In this document: one piece after another, positions 9,214 through 41,184 of the stretch | Layout of the letters: each line of letters begins with the position of its first letter | Position numbering within the stretch: position 1 is the first letter of the stretch | Sequence record: NC_093713.1 | Reading direction: 5' to 3' (one strand) | Length of the DNA stretch: 41,184 bases | Source of the DNA: a phage | Made by a program: the position numbers and the translations under genes | The notes under the pieces: model-generated | The model's input: the letters and a program-made list of their open reading frames with translations, nothing else | Told to the model about the DNA's origin: nothing | Databases searched by the model: none

Positions 9214-11501
9214 TATTTAAACCCCGGCGAGTTTCTTGTGGCTTTGCGGGCCTTGCTAATCTTGCTGTTGCTGTTCTGCAAAGAGGCAGCCACCTGCTCC
9301 TCGATGATGATTCGCAAACGGCCTTCATCATCCTGCTCAGTGGATACGTTGCCGATTTGAGAACTCGTGTTGTTTACGATAGTAACATTAGGCGGGCCGG
9401 AAGAAGACCCGTTTTGCCCCATAATTTCTTTCATCTGCTGTGCTGTGCGAACACGAGATGCGCCAGCAGGCATGATGACTTCTGGTTTACCGCGTTCTGC
9501 GATGGTGGAAGCCTGCCCTGCGGATAACTGTCCCCCCTGTTCACGCGCGGACCTGATAGCGGAAATCTGCGCCATACCCGCCCCAACGGCAGCGGCAGCG
9601 GCTACGGGGGCCAGGAACGGGCCAACTACAGGGATAGCCGCCGTTGACTTGTACGCCTCAATAGCTGCGGTGTACGTGGCTATAGTGGCCTGTACGATAG
9701 CGAATGCCTTGTACGCGCCAGAAGCCTCACCCAACGCAGACCCGATGTTTGAGGCCATGTTACCAAAGGCCGTTGCCGTTGCATCGGCACGTTTGGTTGC
9801 GTATTGCTCGTTGATGGCGTTAAGAGCGGCCTGATACTGCTTCTCGCTAATCAGCCCCTGTTCACGGTATTTATCAGCTACCGCCAGTTTCTGCTGTTCC
9901 TGGATGTCGAGAAGCTCAAGCTCAGTAGCGTTCTGACCCATAATCTGAGCCATGAAGTCGTCACCTTTCTGCTGCTTTTCCTGGGCTTCTTTCTGGCGTT
10001 TATCCAGTTCATCTTGCCGTTTTTGCCCGGCTTCGAGGACGATAGCTGTTTTAGCCTGTTCGTATTCTTTCAGCGACAGCGCGCCCTGGCTGTAGAACTC
10101 TTTTGCCTTAGCCAGTTTCTGCTGTTCCTGCGCGTCGATAGCCTTTAACTCATCGTTGTTCTGGCGAGCCAAAGTGTCGAGGTAATCCTGCGCCTGATTC
10201 CGCAATTGTTCTGCTTTCTTGGCGGCGGCTTTTGCCGCTTTATCGTCGGTGTTTCCTGCCCCGCCAGTTCCGCCCTTTTTATTAACAAGACTGGCTAAGT
10301 CAATTTCTTGCTTCTTGCGCTCGTCGTACTGCTTGCGCTGTTCCTCAATTTCTTTCTTACGCTGCTTAGACCTGTTGGTAATGGCCTGTGATTCTGCCTC
10401 TGCGCGTTTTATGCTAGCGGCGTACGCGGCGTCGGCCTCTGCGGTCAGGTTTTTAAATGTTAGCGCCGCCGTTTTGCTCGGGTCAAACACGTCGGCAAGG
10501 GTCTGCCCTAACGCTACAGCGTAATCGTCGATGCGCTGGAACCACGCAATAACCTCGTGAAATGTCTGCTGGATGTCCGGCAACCACTCACGGATGGCAT
10601 CCGGTATAGTCCCCAGCGAGTCAGACATATCAACGGATTTGTCCTCGGTATCGAATGCCAGGTCATTCAAGGCGTCGGAAATAAACTTGAATGACTCATT
10701 GAACAGCGCCACCCAATCCTGGAGCGTGGCGGCTATCTCATTAGACGCGATGGCGTCGGTAAGCGCCGTGATAGCGTCTTCCGCTGTGGCCGCTTGCTCA
10801 CCTACGGCGTCGCCAAAACCAGACTGCGCCACCGCAAGAACAAGACCGTCGAAGGAGTCGGCGAGGCTCGATAACTGGCCGTCTAGCGTCTTAGAGCGCG
10901 TCTCCATCGCCCCGGCAAAATCGGTGTTGCCGATATTCAGGAGGTATTTCTGAATCTCTTCGGAGTTCTTCTTAACCGTGGTAGTTACGCCGCGGAACGT
11001 GAACGAAACTGTATCTGCCTGTTGCGACGACTTGATGCCGAACTCTTTTAAGCGCTCAAATTCAAATGTACTGGCGTCGGCAACTGCCTCAATCATCTGA
11101 TTAAGGTCTTTACCCATAGCCGCCGCGGTGTTGCCGTAGGAGATTAACGCCTCTTTGCTGGGGTTCAGACCGAGCGCAACGAGCTTGGTAAACCCCTCTA
11201 CCGCCTGATTGAGACCGTACGGGGTCTCTTTTGCGAACTGTTGCAGGACGCTGAAAGCCTTAGCCGCGTTCTCGGCGCTCCCGGTCATCGTGATGAGGCC
11301 GGAGTTCAGCTTATCGAAGTTTCGCTGGGAATCCACCAGCGCGCTGAACACCTGCTTAGCGGTTTCCAGACTGACAACGGCGGCGGCGGCGGCCCCCGCC
11401 GCCTTGGTAAGCCCGTTCAGTTGTGATGTGGTTTTATCGACGCCGGTCGATGATACTCGTACTATCAAGCTAGCGGTATCAGCCATGATTTCTACCTTCA
11501 A
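9213..11501 (-). CDS. tail tape measure protein
   Basis: 762 aa, Ala/Gln/Glu/Lys-rich and helical in character, directly downstream of the tail chaperone pair; probable ATG start at 11486 with SD AAGGT (track start is TTG at 11501). Confidence 0.85.
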   Translation of the reverse strand: MKVEIMADTASLIVRVSSTGVDKTTSQLNGLTKAAGAAAAAVVSLETAKQVFSALVDSQRNFDKLNSGLITMTGSAENAAKAFSVLQQFAKETPYGLNQAVEGFTKLVALGLNPSKEALISYGNTAAAMGKDLNQMIEAVADASTFEFERLKEFGIKSSQQADTVSFTFRGVTTTVKKNSEEIQKYLLNIGNTDFAGAMETRSKTLDGQLSSLADSFDGLVLAVAQSGFGDAVGEQAATAEDAITALTDAIASNEIAATLQDWVALFNESFKFISDALNDLAFDTEDKSVDMSDSLGTIPDAIREWLPDIQQTFHEVIAWFQRIDDYAVALGQTLADVFDPSKTAALTFKNLTAEADAAYAASIKRAEAESQAITNRSKQRKKEIEEQRKQYDERKKQEIDLASLVNKKGGTGGAGNTDDKAAKAAAKKAEQLRNQAQDYLDTLARQNNDELKAIDAQEQQKLAKAKEFYSQGALSLKEYEQAKTAIVLEAGQKRQDELDKRQKEAQEKQQKGDDFMAQIMGQNATELELLDIQEQQKLAVADKYREQGLISEKQYQAALNAINEQYATKRADATATAFGNMASNIGSALGEASGAYKAFAIVQATIATYTAAIEAYKSTAAIPVVGPFLAPVAAAAAVGAGMAQISAIRSAREQGGQLSAGQASTIAERGKPEVIMPAGASRVRTAQQMKEIMGQNGSSSGPPNVTIVNNTSSQIGNVSTEQDDEGRLRIIIEEQVAASLQNSNSKISKARKATRNSPGFK

Positions 11502-14825: not shown

Positions 14826-14856
14826 AAAAAGGCCCCAAACGGGGCCTTAGTTTTAT
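14826..14856. terminator. bidirectional rho-independent terminator
   Basis: AAAAAGGCCCC-AAAC-GGGGCCTTAGTTTTAT between the convergent island and the major tail gene. Confidence 0.65.
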
Positions 14857-16830: not shown

Positions 16831-17240
16831 TTTCTCACCTGAATAAAATACGCCACGACATCATCGTTAACCATCTTCTTCTCGATAGCTACGACAGACC
16901 ATTGCTCGCCGCCGAATTGTACCTTGTCTTCCATTTTTGGCACGACACTGCAATCCGCTTTAACAACCATGTCGCCAGCCTGAATCGTCGTACCATTAAC
17001 CAGTCCCACGTTAACCGGAACCGGAACGGCCTTCAACGGCAGCACTTCATCGTCAGGCCATACGTACTCACCGAGAACTTCATCCCACACTTTCGATCCA
17101 GCACGAACCAGAGATACCGTGCTCCCGAATTTGGTTAGCAGTCGTGTACCAACGCCTTGCATACGTTTACTGAAAGCAGTGCTCATCTGGCGGCCTCCAG
17201 TCTCGAAATAACCAGTAGCGCGGACGGTGCTGTGCCCCAT
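16827..17240 (-). CDS. head-tail connector / head completion protein (putative)
   Basis: Probable ATG at 17186 with SD TGGAGG and ATGA overlap with the upstream stop. Confidence 0.4.
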   Translation of the reverse strand: MGHSTVRATGYFETGGRQMSTAFSKRMQGVGTRLLTKFGSTVSLVRAGSKVWDEVLGEYVWPDDEVLPLKAVPVPVNVGLVNGTTIQAGDMVVKADCSVVPKMEDKVQFGGEQWSVVAIEKKMVNDDVVAYFIQVRK

Positions 17241-17800
17241 GCGGTTACGGTAGCGACTTGTGGGTACACGCCGCCGAAGTTAGTTCCGGCGCTATCCCGC
17301 ATAATCTGTATAGCCAGCGTCTGACCGGCAGCAGGGTTAACAACTACACGCGATTCGATCGGGATTGTTACGTCGGCGCTTACCAGTTTAGTTGCTGCGG
17401 GAGAACCGTACTGAGCACCATTAAGAAGAATGCGCGATAACAGGATTGACGTTCCGCTAGCGCCCGTGCGCCCGGCCTGTAACTTGATGCGAACGGCATA
17501 GTTTCCGGGGGTGTTGAACGTAACCAGCCTCGCAGCATTAATCATTACCGGGTAGGATGCGCTACCCTGAGCAGAGCCGAAAGTTAACTGCAACGCCGTG
17601 TCTACTGCGGTAGGCGCTTGGGCTACAGTAACCGCAGCACGGAGAACTTCAACTTCTTTAACGCCTGGAGTGGCGTAAATAGGAGAGTCCGCCATCTGTG
17701 TCATTACTTCGCGTAACTTCGCGGGGGTGATAAGCCCGGTGGTGTTGTCGGGAAGATTCGCACCGATAAGGGTGAACATCTCTGTTTTAGTTTTCACCAT
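17183..17800 (-). CDS. structural protein, hypothetical
   Basis: 205 aa ORF in the structural block. Confidence 0.4.
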   Translation of the reverse strand: MVKTKTEMFTLIGANLPDNTTGLITPAKLREVMTQMADSPIYATPGVKEVEVLRAAVTVAQAPTAVDTALQLTFGSAQGSASYPVMINAARLVTFNTPGNYAVRIKLQAGRTGASGTSILLSRILLNGAQYGSPAATKLVSADVTIPIESRVVVNPAAGQTLAIQIMRDSAGTNFGGVYPQVATVTAWGTAPSALLVISRLEAAR

Positions 17801-20224: not shown

Positions 20225-20488
20225 CTATTCCAGAATATTCCTCACGTAATCCTGCAACATGAACACTTTAAGTCTCAGTTGCCGTACACATTCTGCGTTC
20301 TGGACGTCAATAGCTAAATCCTCGTCCGCGTCGTTACTCGGCAGTGCCAGTTTGCACGGCGGCTGCATCATCGTCGTATCCGGGGATGGAGTTGGCGTTT
20401 GCGACGGCGCGGGACTTAAGCTGCACGCGCTCAGGGTCAAAAGTGCACACGCTGCGACCAGGCGTTTTAATGTACTTAACGACTTCAT
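20225..20488 (-). CDS. o-spanin-like outer-membrane lipoprotein (Rz1-like)
   Basis: 87 aa; signal peptide with lipobox LSAC, then Pro-rich SLSPAPSQTPTPSPD; lies out of frame within the i-spanin region; SD AGAGGT. Confidence 0.6.
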   Translation of the reverse strand: MKSLSTLKRLVAACALLTLSACSLSPAPSQTPTPSPDTTMMQPPCKLALPSNDADEDLAIDVQNAECVRQLRLKVFMLQDYVRNILE

Positions 20489-20799
20489 GTGTAATTACCT
20501 CTGATTTCGTCTTGCCTTCGTTATCAGCGGCTGCGGCCTTCGACTCATCCTGCTGCTGCCGTTGTGTTTTCTTAGCTAACTCAGCCTCTGTTCGTGTTGT
20601 TATCAGCGGCTGCGGCCTTCGACTCATCCTGCTGCTGCCGTTGTGTTTTCTTAGCTAACTCAGCCTGTGCTTTCTGCTGTTGCTGCGAAACGAGATTCGC
20701 CCGGCCTCCGTTCCAGCCGCTGCTATACTGGTAGATGCCGTGTGCGTAAGCCAGGATGATGAAACATGCTCCCGCTACGACAGTTGCTTTAAGATTCAT
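20334..20799 (-). pseudogene. i-spanin (Rz-like) split into two frames by a 79 bp tandem duplication
   Basis: N-terminal fragment (20581..20799) has a transmembrane segment; C-terminal fragment (20334..20627) is in a frame offset by one; AELAKKTQRQQQDESKAAAADN is encoded by both repeat copies. Confidence 0.6.
20520..20677. repeat. tandem direct repeat, period 79 bp, two copies (68 bp identical core)
   Basis: GTTATCAGCGGCTGCGGCCTTCGACTCATCCTGCTGCTGCCGTTGTGTTTTCTTAGCTAACTCAGCCT at 20520 and 20599. Confidence 0.85.
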
Positions 20800-21049
20800 G
20801 TTTCCCCTTTCTCGATAAGTAAAGCCCCGCCTTAAAGCGGGGCGCTAGTCCTTATCATTTAAACATAGAAACGGCGTAATCTCAGTAAACCAGTTACTTT
20901 TTACACAAGCAATATAGTATGGCCCTTCCGAACGCGTCAGCGCAACTACACTCGGACTTAACGTCCGGCTCCGTTACCTGCCGCGCCGCGGTCGCTTGTT
21001 CATACTTCACAAGCTCAGGTGGAGCTTAGCACATTTTTGGTGAAAAGTC

Positions 21050-21113: not shown

Positions 21114-21137
21114 CTAAAAAGCCCCTTTCGGGGCTTC
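21114..21137 (-). terminator. rho-independent terminator
   Basis: GCCCCGAAAGGGGC stem followed by TTTTTAG on the - strand, after 21141..21602. Confidence 0.6.
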
Positions 21138-21140
21138 AGT

Positions 21141-21602
21141 TTATTCTGGCTTAGTAACCTTCGCCGCTTTACTGACGGCCTCTACCCCATCGGCATCGGT
21201 GACTTTAACGAAGTATTCACCGACAGCATTAACCGTCAGAGACAAAGCCTCTTCTGGGGCGTTTACCACTTCCTTGCTGTCTTTGTACCAGGTCAGTACA
21301 CACGGCGCTTTACCCGCCTTAACTTCGACGGTGATGGTGGCGCTACCGTCGACCAGCTCGGTGTCTTTCGGTTGCACCGAGAAATACACGTCACCTGCAT
21401 CCGCCAGATACGGAATTTCATAAAGCATGCCCGCCGCGGGTAACGCAATACCGGTTTTATCTGCAAACGGCATATCGTCTTCGGGTGTACCGAGTACACT
21501 TTCATCATCAATAAACACCACGTTCTCACCAGAGCCAGACACGCGGGCGTACTGGACTACGCGACGTGACGGTACATCAGTTACTTTGAAAAAGCCCATC
21601 AT
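21141..21602 (-). CDS. Ig-like domain protein (possible head decoration or minor capsid protein)
   Basis: 153 aa; C-terminal segment PCVLTWYKDSKEV...GEYFVKVTDADG typical of Ig-like domains; start overlaps upstream stop. Confidence 0.45.
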   Translation of the reverse strand: MMGFFKVTDVPSRRVVQYARVSGSGENVVFIDDESVLGTPEDDMPFADKTGIALPAAGMLYEIPYLADAGDVYFSVQPKDTELVDGSATITVEVKAGKAPCVLTWYKDSKEVVNAPEEALSLTVNAVGEYFVKVTDADGVEAVSKAAKVTKPE

Positions 21603-22684: not shown

Positions 22685-22706
22685 AGAAAGCCCCTTTCGG
22701 GGCTAT
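22685..22706 (-). terminator. terminator-like hairpin between portal and head morphogenesis genes
   Basis: GCCCCGAAAGGGGC stem followed by TTTCTTAT. Confidence 0.45.
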
Positions 22707-22714
22707 ATGTGAAC

Positions 22715-28117: not shown

Positions 28118-28603
28118 TCATTTAACAGCCCTCCCAATAGCCTCAGCCTCTTGCCACGGTTTACCGTCGAACAGCGCCAGACGCCCGGCTGTACGGCGAC
28201 GCAGGCCAAGTAGTGGTTTGCCGTTCTGGTTGATGAACAGCGCCAGCTTAGCCCGCAGTGTTGCAGTATCACCAGAACGCAGTGCCTTGCCTGCGCCCGT
28301 AGTAGACGCAATCACGCCAGCACCTGCGTTATAGACCAGGTCGCACACTGCATCAAACTGCGCCTGTGTCAGGGAGTGGTGTGCTGCTGCGTCAACCGCA
28401 GCTACAGCCTTAGCCATATCACGATTCAGTAACAGGAGGCCTTGCCCTGGCGTGATGGTCTTACCTGGTGTTACGTCTGGCCCGTAGTGACCATAACCAA
28501 TAGTCAGGTACTTCTCGTTCGGCGTAGCGCGATACGCAGTTCCGCGGAATCCCTCGAACGCGGCACAGAAATGCAATCCATTATCTGAAATATTTCGAGA
28601 CAT
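28118..28603 (-). CDS. endolysin, phage lysozyme (glycoside hydrolase family 24-like)
   Basis: 161 aa; N-terminal FEGFRGTAYRATPNEKYLTIGYGH consistent with the T4 lysozyme catalytic E/D/T region. Confidence 0.75.
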   Translation of the reverse strand: MSRNISDNGLHFCAAFEGFRGTAYRATPNEKYLTIGYGHYGPDVTPGKTITPGQGLLLLNRDMAKAVAAVDAAAHHSLTQAQFDAVCDLVYNAGAGVIASTTGAGKALRSGDTATLRAKLALFINQNGKPLLGLRRRTAGRLALFDGKPWQEAEAIGRAVK

Positions 28604-28853
28604 GCTTATGTCCTCCGTATGACAGCCACGCCTGGCGAATCTGGCGCAGCGCGACTAATGTGATTAATGTCTCAGGCAGCGTAGGCGACATGCTGCCCTG
28701 TAACAGGTGAATACATCCGGCGGCACAGACGATAGCAGTCAGGATATAGAGAACACGCCCGAACAGCCCGTCGTCCACGCGTTCATTATACACGTTGAAC
28801 AGGGACGAAGCGCCCATTGAAAGCATTGTGACAAACCAGAATAGCTCAGTCAT
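28581..28853 (-). CDS. membrane protein between holin and endolysin (holin/antiholin-like)
   Basis: ATG at 28853 preceded by AGGAGG; two hydrophobic segments; the track ORF extends upstream in frame. Confidence 0.45.
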   Translation of the reverse strand: MTELFWFVTMLSMGASSLFNVYNERVDDGLFGRVLYILTAIVCAAGCIHLLQGSMSPTLPETLITLVALRQIRQAWLSYGGHKHVSKYFR

Positions 28854-29154
28854 GCGGTCCTCCTGGGCGGGCAATATCGCCGCCCGATACGATGCCAGAA
28901 AGGCGGGAATAGATAGGCATCCAGAGAATGGCAATGATGAATCCGAGGCCAGCTATCTCGCGCTCACCGGTAATACCAAACCATTGAGCCGCAAGAGGTG
29001 CGCCAAATACGGCGCAAGTGAAGCCAGTTGCAATAAAGCAGAAGCCGTCAATAGGGCCAGAAATAACGGACTTATGTTGCCTTAGTCCGATTACCCCACC
29101 AGCTAGTGCGGCGGCGAGAAGCCACCCCGTCACTGTTTCAGTAAATTTATCCAA
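28846..29154 (-). CDS. holin (putative), TTG start
   Basis: 102 aa with hydrophobic segments, directly upstream of the endolysin; only in-frame start is TTG with SD GGAGGA 6 nt upstream. Confidence 0.55.
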   Translation of the reverse strand: MDKFTETVTGWLLAAALAGGVIGLRQHKSVISGPIDGFCFIATGFTCAVFGAPLAAQWFGITGEREIAGLGFIIAILWMPIYSRLSGIVSGGDIARPGGPHD

Positions 29155-31748: not shown

Positions 31749-31978
31749 CCGAGTTCCAGTCCCGCGTATTTACGGCAGTCGTTTCATTAACCCGTAAAAA
31801 AGGGTCGTGCAGCGTTATGGACTTGCGCCGTAGTTATTTTAGGTACTATAGTTCCGCCATTATTGAAGGGTCGTTGAAGGTACTGGTTAAATCTGGTGTC
31901 GTGAAAAATGTTGGCGGGAAATATAGTGCTGTTGCCGAAGTTCGCGGAATGACCGCTACTTTAGAAGACCTGGAATAA
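31745..31978 (+). CDS. hypothetical protein (77 aa)
   Basis: ORF track; ATGA overlap with upstream gene. Confidence 0.45.
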   Translation: MTEFQSRVFTAVVSLTRKKGSCSVMDLRRSYFRYYSSAIIEGSLKVLVKSGVVKNVGGKYSAVAEVRGMTATLEDLE

Positions 31979-32036
31979 AAGAAAGCCCCGACGCGGTGAA
32001 CGCCGAGGCTAAATTACTTGCTGAAGGAAATATAAC

Positions 32037-34295
32037 ATGTCCGATGTAATTTTATCCTACTCGTGGTCTCGTCGCAACGCGCGGGCCGAGAAAAAGGATA
32101 TAAACGTCAGAACCACACACACGGCAACGCTGGACGACCTGAAAGATTTAATCCAGCCGCTTGATGCTGTCCGTGACGGAATTAACCCGAAGACCGCACC
32201 TGGTTACATCACCGCTGCGTGCGACTCTACGCACAGCACCGTAAAAGACCCGGAAACAGGTGACTTTAAGCAAGCGCGTAAAGGCTTTTTCTATCGCTGC
32301 GACGCGTCTGTAAGCAAATCGTCGCTGGCGTACCTGGACTTTGACAGTGCAACCCTGGAAGAGTATCAGGAAGCTGTGCGCCTGGTTAAGCGCAGCCGGC
32401 GGGCGATGTGCCTCTATACCACGGCATCACACACAGACGAAGCCCCGCGCTTTCGCGTCGTCATGCCGCTGGCCCGAACGGTTGAGGGCGGTGACATCAT
32501 TCGTGTTCGTCATGGATTGCTGGAGCACTTCTTCAAAGGCATGGGCGCCGACCGCAGCGGGTTCACTCTTTCGCAGCCGATGTACTTGCCTCCTGTCGGC
32601 GCTACCGTTATCTGGTCGCGCCGCAACGACCTGATTGACCCTGATGAGTTACTGGAAGGCGTCCCAGCCGTTGACATCAGCAGCGCATCTGATTACCAGA
32701 TACCGGAAGAACTGCGCACCGCGTTTACAGATGCGTTTGAAGCACTGGCATTCGAGTACGGCGGCATCATGACGCCGCGTGGCCTTAAGATGCCAGCTAC
32801 GCCAGAACACGCAGAAAACTACAGCGACCCGACACCACGCCCGGACGATTTCCTGTTATGTTTCCCGCGCGAGGGATACGAAGCGCCGAACGTAACCATG
32901 ATTCACGACACCGACATTGCCGCGACCGAAGGAATGCCCCCGAAAGAAGTGTGGAAATACGCGTGTGATGCGACCGGGCTGCCGTTCAGTGAAGTCGCCG
33001 AGGCTATCGGATGGGGTGCGCGTGAATCTGTTTCATGCAGCCTCGACGACCTGGAAGACGATGATGACTCAGAAGAGGACGAGCTACCGGAACCGGTAAA
33101 GGCTGATTTCGTCGTTGAGGGGTACATGCCGTCAGATTGTATCTGGGATATTGTTGGGGAATCCGGCACGTACAAATCGTTCTATACGCTGGGGATGATG
33201 TACCTGAGCGCCGCCGGATACCGGTTTGCCGGGGCGGATACCCAGCGTTGCCACCATTTCTATATCGACGGTGAGGGAGGCGCAGCTACACGCACACGTA
33301 TTGACGCGCTCGCGGCTAAATACGGCGAGGAAGGTAAAGATTACGTACATGTCATTGATATGGGTGAGGTGCTCGCCGCGCATGGTGATAAAAAAATCCC
33401 CGCGCTAATCCGCAGGATGCGTGAAGCTGCAGGGGACGAGCCTATTGGTATGGTCGCGTTCGATACCCTCAACCAGACGCTGGCCCTGACAATTGACAAG
33501 TTCGACGAGAACAGTTCATCAACTGCAATTGGCATGGGTAAAGTTATCGCCATCCTTAAAAAAGTACGCGACGCAACTAAAGCCGCTGTGGGTGTCGTCC
33601 ACCATACGCCTAAGGGTGGAAAGAAAGCCCGTGGTAGCGGGGCGCTGTATGCCGGTGTTGATGTGGAGCTGACAATTGAGCGCGCTACCGACCGCCAGAT
33701 AAACGTATACCACTCGAAATTTAAGCATGGGCCTCAACAGAAAACGGTTGGCATGGTTCTGGAGTCGGTACAGTTCCGTGAAGCCCCGCCTCCGAAAGAA
33801 TACCGTGCGGTTGAGTTCCTCGGTAGCACAGAGGAATACGGCACAATCGTAAACCTCGATCTGCCTGAGCCGCACAAGGCGCTTGTGCTGATGCCGTGGG
33901 GCTTCGAGCCGTTCAAAACTGACGAGGAGAAGGAGCGGGAAGAAGGGTTAACTAAAGAAGGTAAAGAAAACGTAAAGAATGCTGTAAAACGCGGGAAGGA
34001 TGAAGGGCGTAAGGAATCAATACTCGCCGCGCTGGAAGACCTGCAACAGTCCGACGACACCGGACGAGGTTTTACCCAACGGCAGATAGTGGCGAACTCG
34101 GGGGACCACGCCATCACCAACCACCATCTTGAGAAGATGCTGAAAGACGGTGAGTTGATGCTCGGGTGCGATGTTAACGGTGAAGTTATACCAGGCACAT
34201 ACCGGATACCTGAAAAGATGGGGGACAGATTAAGACCGAAGACGATATACGAACCGAATGAACTGTTAACAGTGACAGAGGAGGATTTAGAATAG
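32037..34295 (+). CDS. primase / replicative ATPase (PrimPol-like N-terminus with RecA-like AAA_25-type C-terminal domain)
   Basis: 752 aa; Walker A-like GESGTYKS; Walker B-like VAFDTLNQ; SD AAGGAAAT. Confidence 0.6.
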   Translation: MSDVILSYSWSRRNARAEKKDINVRTTHTATLDDLKDLIQPLDAVRDGINPKTAPGYITAACDSTHSTVKDPETGDFKQARKGFFYRCDASVSKSSLAYLDFDSATLEEYQEAVRLVKRSRRAMCLYTTASHTDEAPRFRVVMPLARTVEGGDIIRVRHGLLEHFFKGMGADRSGFTLSQPMYLPPVGATVIWSRRNDLIDPDELLEGVPAVDISSASDYQIPEELRTAFTDAFEALAFEYGGIMTPRGLKMPATPEHAENYSDPTPRPDDFLLCFPREGYEAPNVTMIHDTDIAATEGMPPKEVWKYACDATGLPFSEVAEAIGWGARESVSCSLDDLEDDDDSEEDELPEPVKADFVVEGYMPSDCIWDIVGESGTYKSFYTLGMMYLSAAGYRFAGADTQRCHHFYIDGEGGAATRTRIDALAAKYGEEGKDYVHVIDMGEVLAAHGDKKIPALIRRMREAAGDEPIGMVAFDTLNQTLALTIDKFDENSSSTAIGMGKVIAILKKVRDATKAAVGVVHHTPKGGKKARGSGALYAGVDVELTIERATDRQINVYHSKFKHGPQQKTVGMVLESVQFREAPPPKEYRAVEFLGSTEEYGTIVNLDLPEPHKALVLMPWGFEPFKTDEEKEREEGLTKEGKENVKNAVKRGKDEGRKESILAALEDLQQSDDTGRGFTQRQIVANSGDHAITNHHLEKMLKDGELMLGCDVNGEVIPGTYRIPEKMGDRLRPKTIYEPNELLTVTEEDLE

Positions 34296-40814: not shown

Positions 40815-41006
40815 ATGAAACACGAATATGACCGCAAACCAGCACGTGACATCGTACCTGGCGATATGATTTTCAACGTTAAGACCCGCCACCCTGTTGC
40901 CGTTGATACGGTGTACGTCGAGTCAAACGGTAAACTGGTTATCGAAGATGTAACCGGTAACGTTACGGCGTTCGGTCGTAAAGAGTTAGTTCTGGTGGCG
41001 AAATGA
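40815..41006 (+). CDS. hypothetical protein (63 aa)
   Basis: ORF track; SD AAGGAA. Confidence 0.45.
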   Translation: MKHEYDRKPARDIVPGDMIFNVKTRHPVAVDTVYVESNGKLVIEDVTGNVTAFGRKELVLVAK

Positions 41007-41184
41007 ACTATTACAATGAATGGGATAAAGGCGCAGCCGCGTGGCTGCGTGAGTTGATAAAACAGGGTCACATACCTTTTGGAGTTGTAGATGAAAGAAG
41101 CATTACCGAAGTTAAGCCAGAAGACCTTGACGGGTTCACCCAGTGTCATTTTTTCGCGGGTATCGGCGGCTGGCCTCTCGCGCT
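41003..41184 (+). CDS. DNA (cytosine-5)-methyltransferase, N-terminal fragment (runs off the window end)
   Basis: Hand-translated MNYYNEWDKGAAAWLRELIKQGHIPFGVVDERSITEVKPEDLDGFTQCHFFAGIGGWPLA; motif I FAGIGG; ATGA overlap with upstream gene. Confidence 0.65.
   Translation, partial: MNYYNEWDKGAAAWLRELIKQGHIPFGVVDERSITEVKPEDLDGFTQCHFFAGIGGWPLA

Follow-up and report, generated by a model that had tools for sequence, protein, structure and literature searches.

The spanin locus of the phage genome NC_093713.1 lies at positions 20225–20799 of the window, the whole 41,184-bp stretch of DNA analyzed here, and is carried on the minus strand. It contains three open reading frames (orfs), which the orf list places where the initial annotation had them: one of 72 aa (20581–20799), one of 97 aa (20334–20627), and one of 87 aa (20225–20488). 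The first two had been read as the halves of a split i-spanin gene, and comparison with phrog_2536 bears this out. The 72-aa orf, the 5′ fragment, matches positions 1–70 of 129 (E = 6.5e-22), and the 97-aa orf, the 3′ remainder in the +1 frame relative to it, matches positions 44–128 (E = 2.8e-37). With tblastn, residues 1–67 of the fTaEco01 spanin align at 20799–20599 in frame −1 (98.5% identity) and residues 43–128 at 20594–20337 in frame −2. The ATG of the 5′ fragment is preceded by a Shine-Dalgarno sequence, AAGGGG, at 20804–20809, and just upstream of this is a terminator-like G+C-rich hairpin followed by a T-run (20824–20843, minus strand), which is conserved in relatives. Similar G+C-rich hairpins (AAAAGGCCCCnnnnGGGGCCTT-like) are present at 2300–2329, 14827–14856, 21116–21145 and 22685–22714, at boundaries between gene blocks, and are probably bidirectional intrinsic terminators.

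The i-spanin gene is interrupted by a repeat. Two 68-bp copies, identical at 68 of 68 positions, lie at 20599–20666 (copy 1, upstream in the orientation of the gene) and 20520–20587 (copy 2), and between them is an 11-nt filler at 20588–20598 that reads AACACGAACAG on the minus strand; the layout is 68+11+68, with a period of 79 bp. On the minus strand the order is AAAGCAC, the first copy (AGGCTGAG...GCTGATAAC), AACACGAACAG, the second copy (AGGCTGAG...GCTGATAAC), and GAAGGCAAG. The occurrence of a 68-bp sequence twice at this period, reported previously, was recovered as two exact copies both by a script and by Tandem Repeats Finder (20520–20666, period 79, 1.9 copies, 100% matches, score 294); a separate direct-repeat search gives the copies as 20520–20590 and 20599–20669. 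The repeat is far beyond chance, as no other tandem repeat in the whole window scores above 41 and no other long exact direct repeat is present.

The initial annotation described the event as a tandem duplication; the duplication of 68 bp and the 79-bp period stand, but it is not a pure tandem duplication, because 11 non-templated bases separate the copies. The filler is absent from the aligned relatives, and a pattern search of the genome found elsewhere only two matches to the 11-mer, each with one mismatch, which is about the chance expectation, and none to the filler extended to a 17-mer; a template elsewhere in the genome was rejected on these grounds. The filler loosely resembles the downstream sequence AAGACGAAATCAG, and half of 5,000 random 11-mers (2,590) fit the local sequence as well as it does. 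The junctions of the repeat are without microhomology, and the two complete head-to-tail copies with explained junctions that characterize a simple tandem duplication (by slipped-strand replication or unequal crossing-over) are not seen at 20520–20666. The event is a 68-bp duplication accompanied by 11 non-templated bases, not a classic slipped-strand product, and the identity of the copies at all 68 positions indicates that it is recent. We also considered a duplication of 87 bp that was at first in frame, was flanked by AGG microhomology, and later shrank to 79 bp; with random 11-mers fitting the local sequence so often, this was rejected as unsupported.

The 79-bp insertion sits after codon 44 of the i-spanin gene and, as 79 equals 3n+1, throws translation out of frame beyond residue 67 and ends it at residue 72 (…AAAADN-NTNRG). 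The resulting 72-aa stub comprises the N-terminal transmembrane segment, about 45 periplasmic residues and the frameshift tail NTNRG, and ends at a TGA stop codon. The C-terminal 61 residues are lost; among 45 relatives in IMG/VR, 33 of these 61 positions are at least 90% conserved, including the sole periplasmic Cys. This Cys (C92 after in silico repair) is encoded, together with the C-terminal half, by the 97-aa orf, the homologous part of which begins at about 20594, and which has neither a signal peptide nor a transmembrane domain (TMD). The sole ATG of this orf is at 20627, with GCAGG ahead of it at essentially no spacing; its Shine-Dalgarno sequence appears weak and badly spaced, and the product, if translated, would stay in the cytoplasm. 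No uninterrupted frame from the TMD to the C-terminal o-spanin-binding domain is present in 20334–20799, and the i-spanin as written is a disrupted allele, predicted not to be a functional member of its family.

Removal in silico of 79 bp (one copy plus the filler) restores a single 128-aa orf, as had been claimed for the deletion of one copy. The repaired protein is identical at 125 of 128 residues to the Rz-like spanin of K1H (gp06), and it matches positions 1–127 of 129 of phrog_2536, labelled 'Rz-like spanin', with an E-value of 1.3e-55; Pfam gives a single, sub-threshold match, DUF2514. Its best 19-residue Kyte-Doolittle window (mean 1.72) covers residues 5–23 and is preceded by a Lys at position 4, as would be expected of a class II protein with a single N-terminal TMD, and an N-in/C-out orientation is predicted. 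The periplasmic domain is assumed to be mainly α-helical or coiled-coil, from the identity of about 98% with the K1H protein and the published description of the family (PMC6139136). By these sequence features the interrupted gene is assigned to the i-spanins of the Jersey family of two-component spanins.

The third orf, which the initial annotation had taken to be an overlapping, out-of-frame lipoprotein o-spanin, is indeed an intact gene of this kind. The 87-aa product matches phrog_5672 (E = 7e-30) and phrog_1267 (E = 9.7e-19), both labelled "Rz-like spanin", and is about 95% identical to K1H gp07 by manual count. It has a signal peptide, MKSLSTLKRLVAACALLTLSA, followed directly by Cys22 of the lipobox LSAC; the residue at +2 is Ser and not Asp, and the protein is accordingly predicted to be a lipoprotein sorted to the outer membrane. 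The mature part is 66 aa long and has eight Pro residues, seven of them within its first 24 residues, and two further Cys residues, consistent with the short Pro-rich periplasmic domain and periplasmic Cys expected of an o-spanin. Its gene overlaps that of the i-spanin by 155 nt (20334–20488), is in the +1 frame of the 3′ portion of the i-spanin gene, and runs 109 nt past it. A GAGG Shine-Dalgarno sequence is located at 20498–20501; this motif, the length of 87 aa, and a Cys at position 22 or 23 are kept in 44 of the 45 IMG/VR relatives.

The start codon of the o-spanin gene (20486–20488, minus strand) is ATG, whereas that of K1H, fTaEco01, Bas70, and 39 of the 45 IMG/VR relatives is GTG. An ATG start is found in only five of the IMG/VR relatives, all of them about 61–65% identical to the i-spanin of the window, and the change from GTG to ATG also replaces Arg by His in the overlapping i-spanin (ITREV to ITHEV). 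In some relatives, Bas70 (PQ850619.1, 754–897) among them, an internal ATG has been taken as the start of the o-spanin, giving a 47-aa protein that lacks the lipobox, and phrog_5672 is only 47 positions long and matches o-spanin residues 41–87 only; a truncated gene call thus seems to have been propagated in the databases.

The locus was compared with those of related phages. It is 672 bp long and single-copy in all 40 full-length phage relatives listed among the matches of 131 phage records that cover at least 80% of the query, versus 751 bp in the window. Alignments with K1H, fTaEco01, Bas70, and one IMG/VR contig each show one clean 79-bp gap and are otherwise 94–99% identical. All 48 relative loci in IMG/VR (48 of 48) are single-copy as well, and their 68-bp stretch aligns to both copies in the window. 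None of the phage records covers the two-copy junction. A pattern for duplications of this segment with any filler no longer than 30 nt has one match in the window and none in the viral, genome, and metagenome contig collections; the E. coli complete genomes gave no match to the spanin locus. Exact look-ups of the 72-aa stub, the o-spanin, and the Hoc-like protein gave no identical protein in the records. Comparison with related genomes had been named beforehand as a test that could overturn the claim of a disrupted gene, and no relative with two copies and an intact frame was found: every aligned relative is single-copy. Among the public collections compared, the 79-bp insertion appears to be private to NC_093713.1. 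The i-spanin gene is present in 506 phage records, 496 of which cover at least 80% of the gene in one place; it is in a single piece in all 60 of the 506 records that were sampled, and it is 118–129 aa long in the 45 IMG/VR relatives. This near-universal intactness implies that the gene is under purifying selection. One contig, IMGVR_UViG_3300045988_018086, is 94–97% identical over the 2.4 kb compared and has a single-copy i-spanin, and is a different phage; the metagenome it comes from (3300045988) holds more than 20 distinct Kagunavirus contigs.

A megablast search with the first 25 kb of the window identifies the genome as that of a Kagunavirus (Guernseyvirinae), with matches at 93–94% identity over 88–100% of the query. 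The matches are UTI89UKE1, fTaEco01/03, fKuEco01, K1G, and K1H, which are K1-capsule-specific coliphages with an endosialidase tailspike, and at less than 95% identity to any record in the collections compared the genome appears to represent a new Kagunavirus. By whole-genome BLAST against fTaEco01 and K1H, the window is a genome in full; compared with those two records it is circularly permuted and in reverse complement, and its ends meet without redundancy inside a DNA methyltransferase gene. An untrimmed terminal overlap from contig circularization was rejected as the source of the spanin repeat, which has 1.9 copies plus filler and lies away from the window ends; the joining of the ends without redundancy also counts against such an origin.

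The gene spanning the ends is a DNA cytosine methyltransferase gene (1–743 and 41003–41184), by which the genome is circularly closed. Within it, about 93 bp (328–420) has no counterpart in fTaEco01 or K1H; overlapping BLAST segments had raised the suspicion of a second duplication here, which was rejected when Tandem Repeats Finder and the direct-repeat search found no repeat, and the segment appears to be divergent or inserted. Between the head-tail adaptor and tail-completion genes there is a 205-aa orf (17183–17800, minus strand) whose counterpart is two tiny orfs (58 and 32 aa) in fTaEco01 and one 75-aa orf in K1H; only the ends of this region are shared with relatives, and about 300–400 bp is extra or replaced. 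The replicative helicase/primase region (31967–34292) has about 32% amino acid identity to fTaEco01 over half of the protein and about 90% DNA identity to K1H, which suggests that the replication module has undergone mosaic exchange. The window also lacks counterparts of several small early fTaEco01 orfs, and its tape-measure gene contains a 53-nt direct repeat (9883–9935 and 10111–10163) whose copies, 228 nt apart, have diverged to 74% identity and probably encode an internal repeat of the protein.

The other lysis genes are intact. Tblastn with fTaEco01 proteins and the orf list place a holin at 28846–29154, a second holin at about 28581–28853, and the endolysin at 28118–28603, all on the minus strand, full length, and 87–94% identical to their fTaEco01 counterparts. 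Of the 69 fTaEco01 proteins used as tblastn queries, the i-spanin is the only one encoded by a conserved gene with a frame break; other incomplete matches come from the gene wrapping the window ends, from divergent modules, and from absent genes. The base-level quality of the record is accordingly high, given that no other conserved gene is frame-broken and that the circle closes exactly. The spanin genes are 7.3–8.4 kb from the holin and endolysin genes, in agreement with the earlier estimate of about 8 kb, and they lie away from the holin-endolysin cassette in every relative examined, so that the separation appears to be a conserved trait of the subfamily and not peculiar to NC_093713.1.

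The prototype of the overlapped architecture is LysB/LysC of phage P2, in which, as in the window, the o-spanin gene begins within the i-spanin gene and runs past the stop codon of the latter. LysB/LysC belongs to a different sequence family and, unlike the pair in the window, lies within the lysis cassette. The closest described counterpart is K1H, whose annotation gives the corresponding region two overlapping "Rz-like spanin" genes, gp06 (387 bp) and gp07 (264 bp). In both genomes the pair is flanked by a Hoc-like decoration gene and a scaffolding gene, the overlap is 155 nt, and the o-spanin is in the +1 frame; the window differs from K1H in the 79-bp interruption of its i-spanin and in the ATG start of its o-spanin. 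K1G, K1H, K1ind1-3, Jersey, and SETP3 have been grouped in the Jersey family of overlapped two-component spanins, with a 155-bp overlap given for the Jersey pair (Kongari et al. 2018, PMC6139136), and the overlap in the window equals this value, as befits the overlapped Rz/Rz1-type pair proposed in the initial annotation. As in λ Rz/Rz1, a class II inner-membrane protein is paired with a Pro-rich lipoprotein of the outer membrane whose gene is in the +1 frame, although no significant sequence similarity to the λ family was found. The λ genes also differ in being embedded rather than overlapped and in being linked to holin and endolysin genes, and the mature o-spanin is longer in the window (66 aa versus 40 aa in λ). 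Earlier work has already described this gene family, the overlap of its genes, and their distance from holin and endolysin; the overlap, the +1 register, and the distance are also common to every relative examined. What is new here is a single disrupted i-spanin allele in a new Kagunavirus genome.

The reading that we consider the most likely, and on balance probable, is that NC_093713.1 carries a recent, private i-spanin-null mutation that is tolerated in laboratory propagation. In the normal state the N-terminal TMD would hold the 128-aa i-spanin in the inner membrane, and the periplasmic C-terminal part of the protein would bind the o-spanin; once holin and endolysin had removed the peptidoglycan, the spanin complex would fuse both membranes and free the progeny. 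The mutation would have inserted 79 bp, made up of a second exact 68-bp copy and 11 untemplated bases, and the mutant product would keep the membrane anchor and lack the 61 C-terminal residues, including the conserved Cys and the o-spanin-binding half, while the leaderless remainder, with its poor ribosome-binding site, could not reach the periplasm. We infer that the spanin complex cannot form, because the C-terminal part of λ Rz binds Rz1 (PMC6139136) and the window has lost that half. Loss of function is predicted from λ genetics, in which knockout of either spanin gene blocks lysis, an effect that shaking of the culture hides and divalent cations bring out (PMC6139136). Holin, endolysin, and o-spanin would still work in such a phage, and lysis would stall at the outer-membrane step, leaving spherical cells, whenever the outer membrane is stabilized, for instance by millimolar Mg2+ or in the absence of shear; in shaken laboratory culture the defect would be near-neutral, which would explain its survival. 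Laboratory nonsense and truncation mutants of λ Rz are alike in keeping the TMD and losing the distal periplasmic part, with the same predicted phenotype; what sets the truncation in the window apart is its origin, a spontaneous duplication-insertion in a genome that is otherwise wild, and for it the phenotype is a prediction.

That the record might hold either a genuine spanin-defective variant or an assembly artefact was recognized in the initial annotation, and we agree that the uncertainty lies there. It is a lesser but substantial possibility that the insertion arose in assembly or sequencing, or that a minority variant was carried into the consensus, and that the real phage has an intact 128-aa i-spanin like that of its relatives; a chimeric read, template switching during library PCR, or a wrongly traversed assembly-graph loop could be the source. 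Such an origin would fit a lesion that is unique among aligned relatives and absent from every collection scanned, with no independent public copy of the junction to be found in them, in a gene that is otherwise almost universally intact and seemingly under purifying selection. The copies are 100% identical, and a template-less 11-nt filler without junction microhomology is as suggestive of a chimeric junction as of a biological one. Against it, no other conserved gene is frameshifted and the genome closes precisely as a circle; moreover, spanin-null phages are viable in the laboratory (PMC6139136). We favor a real mutation because the repeat is not at a window end, is not the clean k-mer-length terminal overlap that two full copies would make, and includes 11 novel bases, a junction that should enter an assembly only if its k-mers exist in the reads; from this we infer that the insertion is probably present in the phage DNA and not only in the assembly.

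A real insertion with retained function, either by +1 ribosomal frameshifting or through two fragments acting as a split i-spanin, is very improbable, and a working 154-aa i-spanin produced by a +1 shift, its stalk carrying a duplicated 26-residue segment, is the least probable outcome of all. Both frames are open together over about 70 nt (20584–20654), the UGA stop has a GAGG shortly before it, and the two frames would be joined exactly if the U of that codon were skipped; a +1 shift at GGC-UGA-G (20581–20587) would give a 154-aa i-spanin with a helical stalk 26 residues longer, close in length to the 153 aa of λ Rz. There is no slippery codon, however, as tRNA-Gly on GGC cannot re-pair on GCU, and the arrangement is absent from all relatives, so that no recoding signal can have evolved. 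As for a split protein, the 97-aa fragment could not reach the periplasm, given its weak, poorly spaced Shine-Dalgarno sequence and its lack of both a TMD and a signal peptide. Rescue by recoding or by a split protein was rejected for want of a slippery site and of an export signal. Were the 154-aa product nonetheless made, it would be a natural test of the effect of stalk length on membrane fusion.

Under either of the main readings no new biology is implied, the lesion being an ordinary loss of function or a possible assembly error in a known gene pair. Should the lesion prove to be an artefact, the consequence would be a purely practical one: the entry should be corrected, as automated pipelines would otherwise list two small spurious orfs where the i-spanin belongs. 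The main relevance is to correct annotation, to quality control, and to users of the phage, which may lyse poorly when the outer membrane is stabilized. If the i-spanin-null mutation is real, the phage would be a spontaneous i-spanin knockout among the K1-capsule-specific coliphages that are being explored for therapy, with incomplete lysis where the outer membrane is stabilized (by Mg2+ or Ca2+, in static or in vivo settings) affecting burst release and efficacy, and it would provide a ready-made strain for studying Jersey-family spanins. We think it somewhat better than an even prospect that NC_093713.1 is a natural, viable i-spanin-null Kagunavirus, for which the spanin was dispensable under the conditions of isolation.
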